Below are positions 54,473 through 64,000 of a stretch of 64,000 nucleotides of DNA, in pieces. The DNA is from an uncultured beta proteobacterium (GTDB taxonomy: Bacteria; Pseudomonadota; Gammaproteobacteria; Burkholderiales; Rhodocyclaceae): assembly GCA_963815365.1 (NCBI GenBank), contig CAWFGN010000012.1, positions 128,934 to 192,933 on the forward strand. The letters run 5' to 3'. The notes beneath the pieces are model-generated. The model ran no database searches. It was not told where the DNA came from and worked only from the letters and a program-made list of their open reading frames with translations. Position numbers and translations under genes: made by a program. How positions within the stretch are numbered: position 1 is the first letter of the stretch; every line of letters starts with the position of its first letter.

Positions 54473-55753
54473 TCAGGATTTTGCGAGCGCCTGATCGATA
54501 TCCCAAAGGATGTCGTCGAGCGTTTCGAGGCCGACCGATAGCCGGATGAGATCAGGCGGAACGCCGGCTGCGACCTGTTGTTCCTCGGAAAGCTGGCGAT
54601 GTGTGGTGGAAGCCGGGTGAATGACCAGCGTCTTGGCGTCGCCGATGTTGGCCAGATGCGAGAGGAACTCGACGCTGTCGATGAATTTCTGTCCCGCCGC
54701 GGCGCCGCCCTTGATGCCGAAGCTGAGCACGGCACCGGCGCCTTTCGGCAGGTATTTTTGGGCGAGGTCGAAATAGCGGTTGTTCTCCAGACCCGGGTAA
54801 TTGACCCAGGCCACCTTCGGGTGATCCTGCAGGAAGCGGGCGACGGCCAGCGCGTTGCTGCAGTGGCGTTCCATGCGCAGCGGCAGGGTTTCGACGCCTT
54901 GCAGGAGCAGGAAGGCGTTCATCGGTGAGAGCGCCGGACCGAAGGTGCGCAGGCCTTCCATGCGGCATTTCATCGTGAAGCCGAAGTCGCCGAAAGTCTC
55001 GTAGAAACGCACGCCGTGGTAGCCCGGCGAGGGATCGGTCATGGTCGCGAACTTGCCGTTGTCCCAAGGGAATTTGCCGGATTCGACGATGATGCCGCCC
55101 ATCGTCGTGCCATGGCCGCCAATGAACTTGGTGGCCGAGTGCAGCGAAATGGCGGCGCCCCACTTGAAGGGCTGGCAAAGGTAGGGACTGGCGAAGGTGT
55201 TGTCGATGAAGAGCGGTAGGCCGGCCTGATTGGCGATCTTGGCCACGGCCTCGATGTCGAGCACGTTGAGCGATGGGTTGCCCATCGTTTCGGCGTAGAT
55301 CACCTTGGTCTTCGGCGTGATGGCGCGGGCAAAGTTTTCCGGGTCGTCGGAATCGACGAAGACGGTATTGATGCCGAGCTTGCGGAAATTGACGTCGAGT
55401 TGGGTATGCGTCCCGCCATACAGCGTGCGCGCCGCAACGATCTCGTCGCCGGCCTCGCAGAGGTTGAGCAGGGCGATCATCTGGGCCGCCATGCCGCTGC
55501 CGGTGGCGACGGCAGCCCGGCCGTCCTCGATGGCCGCGATGCGCTCTTCAAGAACGGCGACGGTCGGGTTGGAGAGCCGCGAATAGACGTTGCCGAAAGT
55601 CTGCAGGTTGAACAGGCTGGCCGCATGGTCCGGGCTGTCGAAGACGTAGGAGGTGGTCTGGTAGATGGGGACGGCGCGGCTGCCGGTGGCGGCATCGGGG
55701 ATCTGGCCGGCGTGCAGGCAGAGGGTGTCGAACCCGTATTCGTGATCAGCCAT
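54473..55753 (-). CDS. metY: O-acetylhomoserine aminocarboxypropyltransferase (MetY-like) 1
   Basis: PIYQTTSY, YSRLSNPT, HSATKF (PLP Lys), HPASTTHRQL. Confidence 0.88.
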   Translation of the reverse strand: MADHEYGFDTLCLHAGQIPDAATGSRAVPIYQTTSYVFDSPDHAASLFNLQTFGNVYSRLSNPTVAVLEERIAAIEDGRAAVATGSGMAAQMIALLNLCEAGDEIVAARTLYGGTHTQLDVNFRKLGINTVFVDSDDPENFARAITPKTKVIYAETMGNPSLNVLDIEAVAKIANQAGLPLFIDNTFASPYLCQPFKWGAAISLHSATKFIGGHGTTMGGIIVESGKFPWDNGKFATMTDPSPGYHGVRFYETFGDFGFTMKCRMEGLRTFGPALSPMNAFLLLQGVETLPLRMERHCSNALAVARFLQDHPKVAWVNYPGLENNRYFDLAQKYLPKGAGAVLSFGIKGGAAAGQKFIDSVEFLSHLANIGDAKTLVIHPASTTHRQLSEEQQVAAGVPPDLIRLSVGLETLDDILWDIDQALAKS

Positions 55754-55763
55754 GGGAGTACTT

Positions 55764-56234
55764 TCAGTGAGGCAGCCAGGTGGGGCGGCGGGAAGAAATG
55801 AGTCTGGTATTGACGCCGAACCAGTTGAGGCCGCCGAACAGGCGGGCATATTCGATCTTGACGCAGCGGTCCATCACCACGGTCAACCCGGAATTTTCGG
55901 CAATTTTCACAGCCTCGTCGTTGATCACGCCGATCTGCAGCCACAGGGTCCTGGCGCCGATGGCAACGGCTTCGCGGGCGATGTCCGGCGTATCTGCCGG
56001 TTTGCGGAAGACGTCAACCAGATCGACCGGCTCAGGAATTGCCGACAGGGTGGGGTAGCACTTCTCGCCCAGGATTTCGTCGTATTTCGGATTGACCGGG
56101 ATGATCCGGTAACCATGTGCCTGCATGTACTTGGCGGCGAAGTTGGACGGCCGGAACCAGTCGGCGGAAAGGCCGACGATGGCCAGGGTCCGGCTTTCGC
56201 GCAGTACGCGGCGCAGGGTGTTGATATCGCTCAT
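55764..56234 (-). CDS. CoA-binding protein (YccU-like)
   Basis: AIVGLS, IPVNP, DLVDVFR, LWLQIG, VMDRC. Confidence 0.9.
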   Translation of the reverse strand: MSDINTLRRVLRESRTLAIVGLSADWFRPSNFAAKYMQAHGYRIIPVNPKYDEILGEKCYPTLSAIPEPVDLVDVFRKPADTPDIAREAVAIGARTLWLQIGVINDEAVKIAENSGLTVVMDRCVKIEYARLFGGLNWFGVNTRLISSRRPTWLPH

Positions 56235-56338
56235 GGGCGCATCTCAGGCGGCAGAACCATGAAAAAAGTTGGGCGCTTATGGTAATCGGTGAGGGAGTTT
56301 CTGTCACGGCCAGAGCGACGGTAGCACTCACGCGGCGG

Positions 56339-61640: not shown

Positions 61641-61831
61641 CGGAATTCCTTGATTTCGTCCAATCGCAAATTCTCGCTACCTGACAGCGCATCGGGAAGG
61701 ATGGATTTCTTATGTCTTTATGGCTGGAGATTCGGATCTGGTGTAATCGCGACGACTACGTCCCCAGGTGAAGGTAGAATCCCGATTCGTGCAGGGCCCC
61801 GTCGTTCCTCCTCAATTCATGGATCTCCACG

Positions 61832-62272
61832 ATGACGATATTCCGGACACTGTTGGCCGTGATCACCTACGCCGTCAGCTTCTGCGTTCTGGCCCAGGGC
61901 GCCATGCCGCAGGTCGAGGTTTACCAGAACCCGGCCTGTCCCTGCTGCAAGAAATGGGTGGCGCATCTGCAGTCGAACGGGTTCAAGGTCAAGGTCAACG
62001 AGGTCGATGACATCGATGTCGCGCGCGCCAAACTGGGCATGCCCGCCCGCTATGGCTCCTGCCATACCGCGGTGGTTGGCGGCTATCTGGTCGAGGGGCA
62101 TGTCCCGGCCGGCGATATCCGGGTGCTGCTCAAGGAGCGCCCGAAGGCCATCGGACTTTCGGTACCCGGGATGGTGACCGGATCGCCAGGCATGGAAGGA
62201 CCGAACCCGCAACCCTATGAAACGCTGCTGATAAAACCGGATGGTACCGCCAGCGTTTTCGCCCGGCACTGA
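61832..62272 (+). CDS. DUF411 (CopG-like) periplasmic metal-binding protein
   Basis: Signal peptide; CPCC, SCHT, EGHVP, GSPGME. Confidence 0.9.
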   Translation: MTIFRTLLAVITYAVSFCVLAQGAMPQVEVYQNPACPCCKKWVAHLQSNGFKVKVNEVDDIDVARAKLGMPARYGSCHTAVVGGYLVEGHVPAGDIRVLLKERPKAIGLSVPGMVTGSPGMEGPNPQPYETLLIKPDGTASVFARH

Positions 62273-62335
62273 CGGCCGGTTTGTTCGATGTCCGGGCCCC
62301 GGGCCGAGCCCCGCAGGCCGCGCGCCGACGGCGGC

Positions 62336-64000
62336 TTAATGAAATAGTCGCTGCCAGCGCTGCTCCAGATCGGCCACGATGCTGTTGCCCAGTGCAACTG
62401 GGTCAGTGTTGATGACCATCCGCCCGCCCAGCAGTTCTGTGGTGTCCTGTTCGAAAAAATCCTGAACCCGCTGCGAGCCGCCAATGGGGGCCGGGATGCA
62501 GTGGTAGGAGTCAAGGCCGAGCAGACGGAAGCCGAGCGAGGCGCCAACGCCTTTTTCGTTGCTCCATTCCGGGCTCGAAAAGGCGAAGGGCATCTCTTTC
62601 AGCGGCCGCCCGAGCGTGTCGGCAAGAACCCGGAAGAGGCCCGAGGCGCGGGCGTTGTCCAGGCATTCGCCCATGTGCCAGACCGGTGGCAGGCTTTTCT
62701 CTTCGAGCAGGGCACGCAGAGGCGGGCTGGTCTTGTCGGCCGCCGACTGCTGGCAGTAGCCGAGCTTCAGGAGCGGGAAAGAGGCGCAGCCGTTGGTCAG
62801 GACGATGATGTCGTTGGCCAGCAGGATGTCGGTCACCTGGGCGATGGCCTTTTCGTAGAGCACCTTGGGATTGTTGCAGCCAACCAGATTGACGATGCCG
62901 CGTATGGTGCCGTCCCTGAGATGTCCCGCCAGACCGGCGGCACCGCCGAATTCGGGAAGGATGTTCTCGATCGAAAAACCGATTTCGGCTTCGACCGAGG
63001 TGCGCGGAATGAAGACATTGGCCTTGCGCCGCAGCGGAAAGTTCTCGATGCCGATGCGCACGATCTCTTCGGCCATTTTCTGCGCCTCGGCGAGATTGGA
63101 ATGCTCGTGGTCGAAGGCTATATGCAGCGCCCCCGGCAGGCGGCAGGAGTCGCTGGTGGTGATGACCTTGGTGTGGAAACATTTGGCGACTTCCATGATG
63201 CCGGGGTAAACGTCCTGCACGTCGGCCACCCAGGCGTCGAGGGCGCCGGTGCCGAGGACCAGTTCGGCGCCGACCGCATTGGCCAGCGGCGAGACGGCGC
63301 CGTAGCGGTAGAGGCTGGACAGGCCGGAGCAGCAGATGCCGTAGAAACGGATGCCCCTGGCGCCCTTGCTTTCGGCGAGCGCCTTCAGCTCCGGCAGGTC
63401 GCCGGCATGGACGATGGCCGATGGCAGCACCGGCGAATGACCGTGCAGGGCAATATTGACGTAATCGGGTTCGAGGGCGCCGAAGCCGGCGTCAATCCGC
63501 GAGCGTTGCGGCGGACCGTACAGGATGTCCTGGGCGATGGAGCCGCCGGCCACGCTGCTCCAGGCAAAGGCCAGGCCGCAGCGCAGCAGTTGCTGCATCA
63601 GGTTGCGCCAGTCGCCATCGGTGCCGACGCCGGTCCGGTGATAGGCCTCGAAAACTTCGTGATAGGCGCTGATCGGCAGGATGTCGAGCGATTTCCACAG
63701 GGCCAGGCGCTCGGGCGGCACCATGGCGGCCAGCGTACGATGTGCGGCGGGCGTCGTGCGCGACAGGTCTTCGAGCAGGATGTCGGCGATTTCGCCGGCG
63801 ACTTCAGGGAGACGGCGCTCTTCCGTGTTTAGGCCGAAGGCGCGCGCCACCGCCAGCACCTTGGCCTCGCCCTTGATCGGCAGATCGAGCCGGCCATCGG
63901 CAGCGCCCTTCAGGGTCAGCATCACTTCGCGGCTGCGCGCCCCGTGCGAGGCAACGGCAGCGGCCACCCAGCGCAGGATGTTGCGGGCGACGATGACATG
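62336..64000 (-). CDS. cooS: Anaerobic Ni-CO dehydrogenase (CooS)-like protein with an atypical C-cluster ligand (5' end beyond window)
   Basis: IVARNILR, HGHSP, GICCSG, DVQD (canonical DxQC), GCNN, NGC, HMGECLDN, EK. The frame stays open to the window edge. Confidence 0.88.
   Translation of the reverse strand, partial: HVIVARNILRWVAAAVASHGARSREVMLTLKGAADGRLDLPIKGEAKVLAVARAFGLNTEERRLPEVAGEIADILLEDLSRTTPAAHRTLAAMVPPERLALWKSLDILPISAYHEVFEAYHRTGVGTDGDWRNLMQQLLRCGLAFAWSSVAGGSIAQDILYGPPQRSRIDAGFGALEPDYVNIALHGHSPVLPSAIVHAGDLPELKALAESKGARGIRFYGICCSGLSSLYRYGAVSPLANAVGAELVLGTGALDAWVADVQDVYPGIMEVAKCFHTKVITTSDSCRLPGALHIAFDHEHSNLAEAQKMAEEIVRIGIENFPLRRKANVFIPRTSVEAEIGFSIENILPEFGGAAGLAGHLRDGTIRGIVNLVGCNNPKVLYEKAIAQVTDILLANDIIVLTNGCASFPLLKLGYCQQSAADKTSPPLRALLEEKSLPPVWHMGECLDNARASGLFRVLADTLGRPLKEMPFAFSSPEWSNEKGVGASLGFRLLGLDSYHCIPAPIGGSQRVQDFFEQDTTELLGGRMVINTDPVALGNSIVADLEQRWQRLFH

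Follow-up and report, generated by a model that had tools for sequence, protein, structure and literature searches.

A clade B nickel carbon monoxide dehydrogenase homologue in an accessory island with candidate sulfur-acquisition genes beside guaA in a Rhodocyclaceae genome

Why does a homologue of CooS, the nickel-dependent carbon monoxide dehydrogenase (Ni-CODH), lie among genes of sulfur amino acid synthesis in an uncultured member of the Rhodocyclaceae? The stretch of DNA that raises this question, hereafter the window, is 64,000 nt long and comes from assembly GCA_963815365.1 (2.5 Mb, 15 contigs, 77% complete; window at contig C12:128934-192933). A first-pass annotation had placed two MetY-like enzymes, a coenzyme A (CoA)-binding protein, a hydrolase, a PaaK-like ligase and an atypical CooS in the 9.5 kb that follow guaA, and had proposed that together they form an organosulfur-scavenging pathway. 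Genes were identified by profile searches (Pfam, NCBIfam) of the window's open reading frames (ORFs), and the contig beyond position 64000 was also read. On balance, we lean towards reading the locus, from its gene context, as part of an island in which several sulfur-acquisition modules are combined as a mosaic, and which would serve sulfur acquisition under anoxic sulfur limitation.

What kind of enzyme is the CooS homologue? When aligned to solved CODHs, it retains every ligand of the C-cluster except Cys333, which is replaced by Asp (motif DVQD). The signature thus reads H, C, D, C, C, C, accompanied by the catalytic acid-base His and Lys (motifs HGH, GICC, DVQD, GCNN, NGC, GEC and NEK); the second proton-relay His (the His96 equivalent) is Arg. 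The Asp is invariant in 120 relatives of 62-80% identity, and the CooS translation has no His-rich extension at its N- or C-terminus, which points to the B-2 type rather than B-1 or B-3. In Table 2 of Inoue et al. 2019 (PMC6344411) the Asp signature is that of clade B, structural group B-2; the island signature also agrees with the description of RfCODH, the enzyme of Ruminococcus flavefaciens (PMC13592312). Homologues from Caldicoprobacter, Ruminiclostridium and Methanosarcina are 58-62% identical to the island CooS, and Caldicoprobacter, Ruminiclostridium and M. horonobensis carry clade B enzymes of group B-1 (Inoue et al. 2019, PMC6344411). Clade B CODHs are, moreover, tied to NitT/TauT transporters (Inoue et al. 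2019, PMC6344411), and all parts of this association (COG0600, COG0715, COG1116) are present here as permease, NMT1_2 binding protein and ATPase. Because the Asp at Cys333, the lack of a His-rich tail and the NitT/TauT association match the published description, the island CooS is, as judged by signature residues and importer association, a clade B Ni-CODH of the B-2 type. The first-pass annotation was right to call it atypical. A canonical CO-oxidising Ni-CODH (clades A, E and F) was rejected in view of the exchanges of Cys333 for Asp and of the His96 equivalent for Arg.

In comparison with canonical CooS and CooC (C. hydrogenoformans CODH-II, R. rubrum CooS), the island proteins share the fold family, the B- and D-cluster cysteines, the equivalents of His261, Cys295, Cys446, Cys476, Cys526, Lys563 and His93, and a CooC P-loop ATPase with a CxC motif; they differ in the Asp at Cys333, in the Arg at the second relay His, and in the absence of CooF or hydrogenase. 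Among 151 genomes of the order, clade B CooS was found in one, that under study. A second CooS homologue is encoded on another contig (C6:606064-608103), is 34% identical to the island CooS, and has canonical DVQC (Cys333) and AAHSDH motifs; by these motifs, the organism carries a canonical Ni-CODH plus the clade B one.

Clade B has been called functionally unknown (Bohm and Land, eLife 2026, PMC13056359; Bohm et al., Angew 2026, PMC13592312). RfCODH shows weak CO oxidation, with no other substrate identified, and the binding protein of its importer co-evolves with the enzyme (PMC13592312); maturases are limited to a small, early-branching clade B group (Bohm and Land, PMC13056359; Bohm et al., PMC13592312). 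The pairing of clade B CODH with NitT/TauT is therefore already known from the literature. Homoserine, sulfhydrylase, cysteine and methionine receive no mention in the published clade B papers (PMC6344411, PMC13056359, PMC13592312), and we found no paper joining CODH to sulfur starvation, sulfonate or O-acetylhomoserine.

Do genes of sulfur metabolism accompany clade B CooS elsewhere? The best 80 of 458 CooS relatives were taken with 10-kb flanks, and the ORFs of 81 loci (these 80 and our own) were clustered without prior labels. The commonest neighbours are the importer components: an ATP-binding cassette (ABC) ATPase in 65 loci, a binding protein in 60 and a permease in 57. The fourth-ranked family is that of the Cys/Met pyridoxal phosphate (PLP) enzymes (MetY/MetB), which clustering detects in 23 loci and tblastn in 26, at a median gap of 203 bp upstream of CooS and co-directional with it in 83% of cases. 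CysK, NifS-like cysteine desulfurase, LarE, Sbp, CysT/W, SrpI encapsulin, CysE-like hexapeptide transferase, RidA and the C-S lyase PatB also recur, the NifS-like and LarE genes in seven loci each. At least one sulfur-assimilation gene occurs in 43 of the 80 loci, as opposed to 6 of ~118 bins of 22 kb from our own genome outside the island. For the PLP family, five carriers (2.6-6.5 Mb) have a background of 3-7 full-length PF01053 genes per genome, such that ~0.03 would be expected per locus. Sulfur-assimilation genes are, then, enriched ~tenfold beside clade B CooS.

A maximum-likelihood tree divides the CooS-linked PLP enzymes into two subfamilies, MetY-type and MetB/C-type, in which they cluster by taxon (Chlorobiaceae, Desulfuromonadales, Sporomusaceae, Clostridia). 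Since the linked enzymes are polyphyletic and grouped by taxon, the association with CooS arose repeatedly, by independent recruitment; a single ancestral metY-cooS operon was rejected for the same polyphyly. In one Geobacteraceae locus the CooS-importer cassette sits between sbp and cysTW-type genes.

How do the genes of the window compare? All those named in the first-pass annotation were recovered by profile search, as were two ORFs that it lacked (the ApbA/PanE-like and glutaredoxin-DUF411 genes). The right-hand part of the window reads as follows:

52827-54446, plus strand: guaA, GMP synthase (NF000848, 834 bits); the last gene syntenic with same-family genomes and the left border of the accessory region.
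54473-55753, minus strand: metY1 (PF01053, 451 bits; TIGR01326, 647 bits versus a cut-off of 495).
55764-56234, minus strand: CoA_binding_2 (YccU-type) protein (PF13380, E 1.6e-43).
56339-57124, minus strand: ApbA/PanE-like ORF (PF02558 on residues 92-219 only), 105 nt from the next gene.
57699-59000, plus strand: metY2 (equivalog NF006004, 782 bits versus a cut-off of 636).
59004-59810, plus strand: alpha/beta-fold hydrolase (PF12697, PF00561; all NCBIfam matches far under cut-off).
60294-61640, minus strand: PaaK-family (AMP-binding_C_2) acyl-CoA ligase (313 bits versus PaaK cut-offs of 646 and 700).
61832-62272, plus strand: glutaredoxin-DUF411 (CopG-like) gene (PF04214, E 5e-25; PF00462), between the ligase and CooS.
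62336-64000, minus strand: CooS, C-terminal 554 residues (PF03063, 437 bits over the full ORF); the gene extends past the window end.

Is this 9.5-kb module a unit in itself? The guaB-guaA pair is shared with three same-family genomes (G135, G030 and G086), and synteny ends at window position 54446. In G135, which belongs to the same genus, the DNA beside guaA matches C12:223659-230867 of our assembly. Because the sequence that adjoins guaA in G135 is found 40 kb away from it in our assembly, the intervening ~40 kb (C12:183380-223650; window 54447 to ~94700) are an accessory region, of which the window module is the left end. Beyond the CooS operon, the island continues with a FixG-like ferredoxin, a MocR-type regulator and a second NitT/TauT importer accompanied by a PALP enzyme and an Asp/Glu racemase; further on lie an enoyl-CoA hydratase, a CoA-transferase, an SCO1-thioredoxin protein, a third importer, a MetB/Z-like gene with OsmC, and a fourth importer. 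In total, the island holds four NitT/TauT importers of SsuA/TauA type and three additional PLP enzymes of the Cys/Met family, along with a CoA-transferase and an enoyl-CoA hydratase. Its borders show no att-type direct repeats of 12 nt or more, its GC content does not deviate (64.3% versus 62.8%), and no integrase was found among the scanned ORFs. About 10 kb past the right border, at C12:233122-249522, lies a sulfur cluster of cysTW, sbp, a cysteine desulfurase, a SrpI type-2A encapsulin, CysE-like, CysK and another MetY gene; this is probably the native sulfate-uptake/cysteine locus, with the island placed between it and guaA.

Are the MetY enzymes of the island simply the organism's housekeeping copies? 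Both exceed the curated cut-offs of O-acetylhomoserine sulfhydrylase families over their full length and are, on these profile matches, PLP enzymes of the O-acetylhomoserine sulfhydrylase type, whose nucleophile may be sulfide, methanethiol or another. A housekeeping MetY, without a CoA-binding or hydrolase partner, is encoded on contig C5 and shares 94% identity with its G135 orthologue. MetY1 and MetY2 are 45-51% identical to the orthologue group of that housekeeping enzyme and ~50% identical to one another. MetY1 is 59% identical to the Sporomusa MetY encoded directly upstream of CooS, as opposed to ~50% to the housekeeping MetY of its own genome; in the tree, MetY2 groups with MetY1 and with the MetY of a verrucomicrobial metagenome-assembled genome (MAG; locus L074). 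The two MetY-like enzymes that the first-pass annotation had described are, therefore, additional island-borne paralogues, not housekeeping copies.

The spacing of their partner genes also stands as first described: the TGA stop of the CoA-binding gene lies exactly 10 nt ahead of the metY1 ATG, which suggests that the two are probably co-transcribed, and the metY2-hydrolase gap is 3 nt. CoA_binding_2 homologues are found near the clade B CooS of Rhodocyclus tenuis (75% identity) and immediately 3' of MetY in the verrucomicrobial L074. The hydrolase has a single, weak homologue among the 80 CooS loci; its identification as MetX was rejected, all NCBIfam scores being far below cut-off. In the ApbA/PanE-like ORF only an N-terminal Rossmann (NAD-binding) domain was detected, and no C-terminal domain; it is probably a truncated gene or remnant. 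The domain begins at residue 92, an indication that the real gene is either shorter than the ORF or truncated.

What is transcribed with CooS? The first-pass annotation had pointed beyond position 64000 for an ABC transporter and for cooC, cooF and 2-oxoacid oxidoreductase genes. The first two are there, and neither of the others was found in this genome. Upstream of cooC-cooS, on the same strand and in this order, lie genes for an acyl-CoA dehydrogenase (ACAD)-like protein, a NitT/TauT permease, an NMT1_2 binding protein and an ABC ATPase, then an AhpD/CMD-like gene, a second ABC ATPase and an AraC/cupin regulator. The best solved match of the binding protein is 3UN6, as published for the clade B importer. 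In the ACAD-like protein Pfam recognises the N-domain only, and no NCBIfam model matches. Comparison with the solved structures of desulfinase and DszC gave marginal matches only.

The operon thereby resembles published clade B systems (PMC6344411, PMC13056359, PMC13592312) in several respects: the Asp in place of the second C-cluster Cys with the other ligands and the His and Lys kept, the three-part NitT/TauT importer with a binding protein akin to 3UN6, and the absence of acs, cooF and hydrogenase partners. It is unlike them in others. The enzyme has no His-rich tail, as befits the B-2 type, and cooC lies directly upstream, as in the rare maturase-bearing proteobacterial branch. The operon also adds the ACAD-like, AhpD-like and AraC/cupin genes, and is set in a 40-kb, sulfur-themed island.

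Could the importer supply the enzyme's metal instead of a sulfur compound? Following Inoue et al. 2019, NitT/TauT would import Ni or another metal for CODH maturation, and the cysteine desulfurase, LarE and cysteine/methionine genes would serve assembly of Fe-S and Ni clusters. A metal-binding site has been predicted in the binding protein (PMC13592312), CooC is present in the island, NifS-like and LarE genes recur at the frequency given above, and a NiCo riboswitch stands upstream of CooS in one relative. This last element lies at L081:8531-8623 in Anaeromicropila herbilytica, ~1.4 kb upstream of the clade B CooS and on the same strand (54 bits versus a cut-off of 37), and is the sole riboswitch found in six Bacillota loci. 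The binding proteins, however, are akin to those for nitrate, bicarbonate and sulfonate and not to Ni binders, for which their size is too small; sulfate transporters, the SrpI encapsulin, CysK/CysE and MetY are matters of sulfur assimilation and not of cluster assembly; and the model leaves the ACAD-like, CoA-transferase, hydratase and ligase genes without explanation. We consider metal supply a very improbable account of the association.

What of the ligase? As the DUF411 gene stands between the two on the opposite strand, the ligase lies outside the CooS transcription unit. Its identification as a bona fide PaaK was rejected, the 313 bits amounting to less than half of the cut-offs and no paa cluster surrounding it. 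The earlier remark that paa genes are missing holds locally and fails genome-wide: paaA and paaC occur with another PaaK paralogue on contig C5. The best solved relatives, with similar scores, are PaaK1/2 (E 1e-85) and 2-hydroxyisobutyryl-CoA synthetase, and identity to the genome's own other paralogues is 36-39%. Homologues of 82-92% identity occur in Dechloromonas, Azonexus and Propionivibrio, annotated as phenylacetate-CoA ligase family. In Dechloromonas denitrificans, the ligase (88% identical) is clustered with CoA-transferase A/B, a small ORF, hydratase, AraC/cupin, CMD/AhpD-like, importer and ACAD-like genes; eleven genes of this cluster are 77-92% identical to island genes, in conserved order. 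The Dechloromonas cluster lacks CooS, having TM_HPP and TetR genes in place of cooC-cooS and DUF411. The TM_HPP membrane-protein gene (L100:8652-9152) has the ACAD-like gene on one side and the gene of the PaaK-like ligase on the other.

Further afield, genes 57-61% identical to the ligase adjoin clade B CooS genes in three further phyla. In a verrucomicrobial MAG (locus L031), a one-strand array runs from an importer through PaaK-like ligase, aminotransferase, 2-oxoacid:ferredoxin oxidoreductase (gamma, alpha and beta subunits) and CooS to a second importer, OsmC, ACAD-like, CoA-transferase A/B and hydratase genes, with SrpI further downstream; its ligase, CoA-transferase, hydratase and importer are 61-75% identical to those of the island, and its ACAD-like protein 43%. 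In a Geobacter MAG the ligase is immediately upstream of CooS. Acetivibrio mesophilus (L082) encodes, on one strand, PaaK-like, PatB, 2-oxoacid:ferredoxin oxidoreductase, RidA, MetB/C-like, PatB, CooS and ABC importer genes; the clostridial neighbourhood of CooS with PaaK-like, MetY-like and ABC transporter genes that the first-pass annotation had mentioned does exist.

The ligase might nonetheless act alone, as a phenylacetate or aryl-acetate CoA ligase in the catabolism of aromatic acids or amino acids, and lie beside the CooS operon by history. Its PaaK1/2 relatives and the annotation of its close homologues speak for such a role. Speaking against it are the score of under half of both PaaK equivalog cut-offs, the about equal score to 2-hydroxyisobutyryl-CoA synthetase, the separate PaaK beside paaA/paaC on C5, and the conserved ACAD-like, CoA-transferase and hydratase partners next to an SsuA-like importer; a lone aryl-acetate ligase is, in our estimation, distinctly unlikely. 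The original proposal of sulfur-containing carboxylate activation fits the observation that the ligase travels with ACAD-like, CoA-transferase and hydratase genes in Dechloromonas and the verrucomicrobial MAG. None of the results points to a particular substrate of the system, be it carbonyl sulfide, thiocyanate, methylmercaptopropionate or another compound. Nor do they support a single pathway. The modules occur separately, and the hydrolase and CoA-binding protein seldom recur near CooS; that all nine genes form one pathway strikes us as improbable.

How, then, could a mosaic of sulfur-acquisition modules work? We infer its chemistry and regulation from the gene identities, the island's boundaries and the co-localisation across phyla. 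The modules would be (i) the clade B Ni-CODH with CooC, in an operon with the ACAD-like flavoprotein, a NitT/TauT importer, the AhpD-like protein and the AraC/cupin regulator; (ii) the PaaK-family ligase, CoA-transferase and enoyl-CoA hydratase; (iii) MetY1 with the CoA-binding protein, MetY2 with the hydrolase, and the MetB/Z-like enzyme with OsmC; and (iv) three further NitT/TauT importers and the PALP enzyme with racemase. Under sulfur limitation without O2, small sulfur-containing anions would be imported, and the clade B CODH would spend low-potential electrons to free reduced sulfur from the imported anion. S-substituted carboxylates would be converted to CoA thioesters and desulfurised via the ACAD-like/hydratase route, and the MetY-type enzymes would attach the freed sulfide or thiol to O-acetylhomoserine.

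Several observations weigh against this reading. The neighbourhood sample comprises the best 80 of 458 relatives, many of the 80 mutually related; MetY/B/C genes lie near CooS in just ~30% of loci, and homologues of the hydrolase and CoA-binding protein in 1-2 loci only. The ligase and both metY pairs belong to transcription units apart from CooS, and in L101 the ligase has neighbours of an unrelated kind. In the five family genomes checked, the ACAD-like/importer cluster occurs without CooS in four and a close ligase orthologue in none. No sulfur riboswitch (SAM, T-box and similar) was found in the window and 20 kb beyond, where the search turned up only a tRNA, or in the six Bacillota loci. 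RfCODH oxidises CO weakly, with no other substrate identified (PMC13592312). Finally, four island genes (AhpD-like, ACAD-like, cooC/cooS and CoA-transferase A) are frame-disrupted, which may reflect a decaying system or an error-prone assembly.

Some of these points would also fit a coincidental assemblage of unrelated accessory genes, in which CooS acts on CO (low-level oxidation, detoxification or sensing), the MetY enzymes are ordinary spares for methionine synthesis and the ligase serves organic-acid catabolism without any part in sulfur metabolism. The modules do occur independently in relatives and as separate transcription units here, RfCODH has its weak CO activity, and CO metabolism is plausible in an organism that also encodes a canonical CooS (Cys333). 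Coincidence accounts poorly, however, for a ~tenfold enrichment of sulfur genes at clade B CooS that spans at least eight lineages and involves PLP enzymes that are not orthologous, for the CooS and importer genes that lie beside or between sbp and cysTW genes in Geobacteraceae and Ectothiorhodospira, or for a single island with four importers of SsuA/TauA type and three additional Cys/Met PLP enzymes; CO, moreover, requires no ABC importer. We therefore regard coincidence as unlikely and retain the mosaic of sulfur-acquisition modules as the preferred reading.

A stronger form of that reading casts the clade B CODH itself in the desulfurising or reducing role, as the core of O2-independent sulfur scavenging in anaerobes and not as a CO enzyme, a proposal that we put forward tentatively and with more doubt than belief. 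The importer would carry a small sulfur anion (e.g., thiocyanate, thiocarbonate or sulfonate), the Asp-ligated Ni-Fe-S cluster would reductively free sulfide or sulfite using ferredoxin from the adjacent 2-oxoacid oxidoreductase, where present, and MetY or CysK would fix the product. Rhodocyclaceae and Verrucomicrobiota would combine this core with a CoA-dependent route for S-substituted carboxylates, made up of a ligase or CoA-transferase, an ACAD-like enzyme and a hydratase.

Parts of such a scheme can be compared with known systems. In the DmdB/DmdC/DmdD route for 3-methylthiopropionate, an acyl-CoA ligase, an acyl-CoA dehydrogenase-family enzyme and a crotonase-family hydratase act in turn and release a thiol that MetY-type enzymes can fix. 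The likeness is one of logic only: the island ligase is PaaK-type and not DmdB-type, and the ACAD-like protein is very divergent. In the betaproteobacteria Advenella and Variovorax, a CoA-transferase and an ACAD-family 3-sulfinopropionyl-CoA desulfinase release inorganic sulfur species from an organosulfur carboxylate. Similarity of the ACAD-like protein to this desulfinase, whose structure we take to be 5AF7, is marginal (E 6e-4, N-terminus only); unlike that route, the island shows no dioxygenase partner, and its context is anaerobic and CODH-linked. With the Ssu/Tau systems of the sulfate-starvation response, the island shares SsuA/TauA-family binding proteins, TauC/SsuC-like permeases and nearby sulfate-transport and cysteine-synthesis genes; it differs in having no SsuD, TauD or other O2-dependent desulfonating oxygenase among its scanned ORFs, with a CODH-family metalloenzyme in that place.

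What the locus adds is a proteobacterial variant that carries cooC and has ACAD-like, AhpD-like and AraC partners; a Dechloromonas counterpart of it without CooS; a connection with genes for a ligase, a CoA-transferase and a hydratase; and an island structure beside guaA. Together with its 80 relatives, the locus offers a testable lead for the enigmatic clade B CODHs: an enzyme and importer amid sulfur-assimilation genes in many phyla, to which some lineages add a CoA-dependent route for organic acids and a ferredoxin-generating oxidoreductase. If the proposal is true, a widespread metalloenzyme that is so far an orphan would gain a function; the proposal could also be relevant to the way in which strict anaerobes draw sulfur from compounds against which aerobes use oxygenases. 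For the genome itself, ~40 kb would be re-annotated as an acquired sulfur-scavenging island beside the native sulfate/cysteine cluster.

Is CooS part of a larger fusion protein? Its frame runs past the window into an ORF of 904 aa, in which residues 1-232 are a CooC-type ATPase and residues 289-902 CooS. The CooC part has a deviant Walker A P-loop (GKGGVGKTT) and a CxC motif (GCYC), and residues 2-232 match CooC1 (3KJE; E 6e-35); by its P-loop, CxC motif and adjacency to cooS, it is the Ni-insertion ATPase CooC. A cooC gene lies directly upstream of cooS in 15 relatives, mostly Pseudomonadota plus Heliophilum, and all of the 120 best homologues of CooS are unfused and ~640 aa long. In Pseudothauera, the nearest relative, cooC ends ...GGAGAACAGCCATGA and the cooS ATG overlaps the cooC stop, an overlap that recurs in the gene calls of other relatives. 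At our junction, the same string follows CCCGGG rather than a shorter G run; the one extra G shifts cooC into the cooS frame, 13 nt ahead of the ancestral cooC stop. A genuine CooC-CooS fusion was rejected given the single extra G, the 120 unfused homologues and other frameshifts in the assembly. We hold it doubtful that the fusion is real, and judge the joining to be a likely product of indel error or recent decay. Elsewhere, the longest CooS-containing ORF of the Verrucomicrobia MAG (L074:8708-11908) measures 1066 aa in a crude ORF call, above the usual length.

The other frameshifts concern island genes that are frame-split despite 79-93% identity to intact orthologues. With the cooC/cooS site, they lie as follows (C12:193-215 kb):

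L002:3228: cooC/cooS, joined.
L002:4724: ACAD-like, split.
L002:~8100-8300: AhpD-like, split.
L095:~6400-6660: CoA-transferase A, split.

A PaaK paralogue (C5:37986-39264) and a MetY paralogue (C12:248219-249522) each give two high-scoring segment pairs with offsets that are not multiples of three, and both appear to be frame-split. Outside the island, one of 35 conserved ORFs is split, too few to separate assembly error from decay.

Three smaller observations concern the neighbours of CooS. Firstly, a LarE-type ATP-dependent sulfur transferase gene (TIGR00268, 331 bits versus 150) directly follows the CooS-importer genes in seven loci of Sporomusa and Caldicoprobacter (L016:10550-11377 and six others), and may account for one of the 'conserved hypothetical proteins' that the literature describes in clade B operons. 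Secondly, a DUF411 gene flanks the CooS cluster of Thiobaca. Thirdly, an OsmC-like gene occurs near clade B CooS in three phyla: it adjoins a MetB/Z-type PLP gene in the island (L095:10929-12580; C12:218.9-220.6 kb) and in Thiobaca (L005:7129-8595), and in the verrucomicrobial array the importer and the ACAD-like gene flank it (L031:14589-15119).

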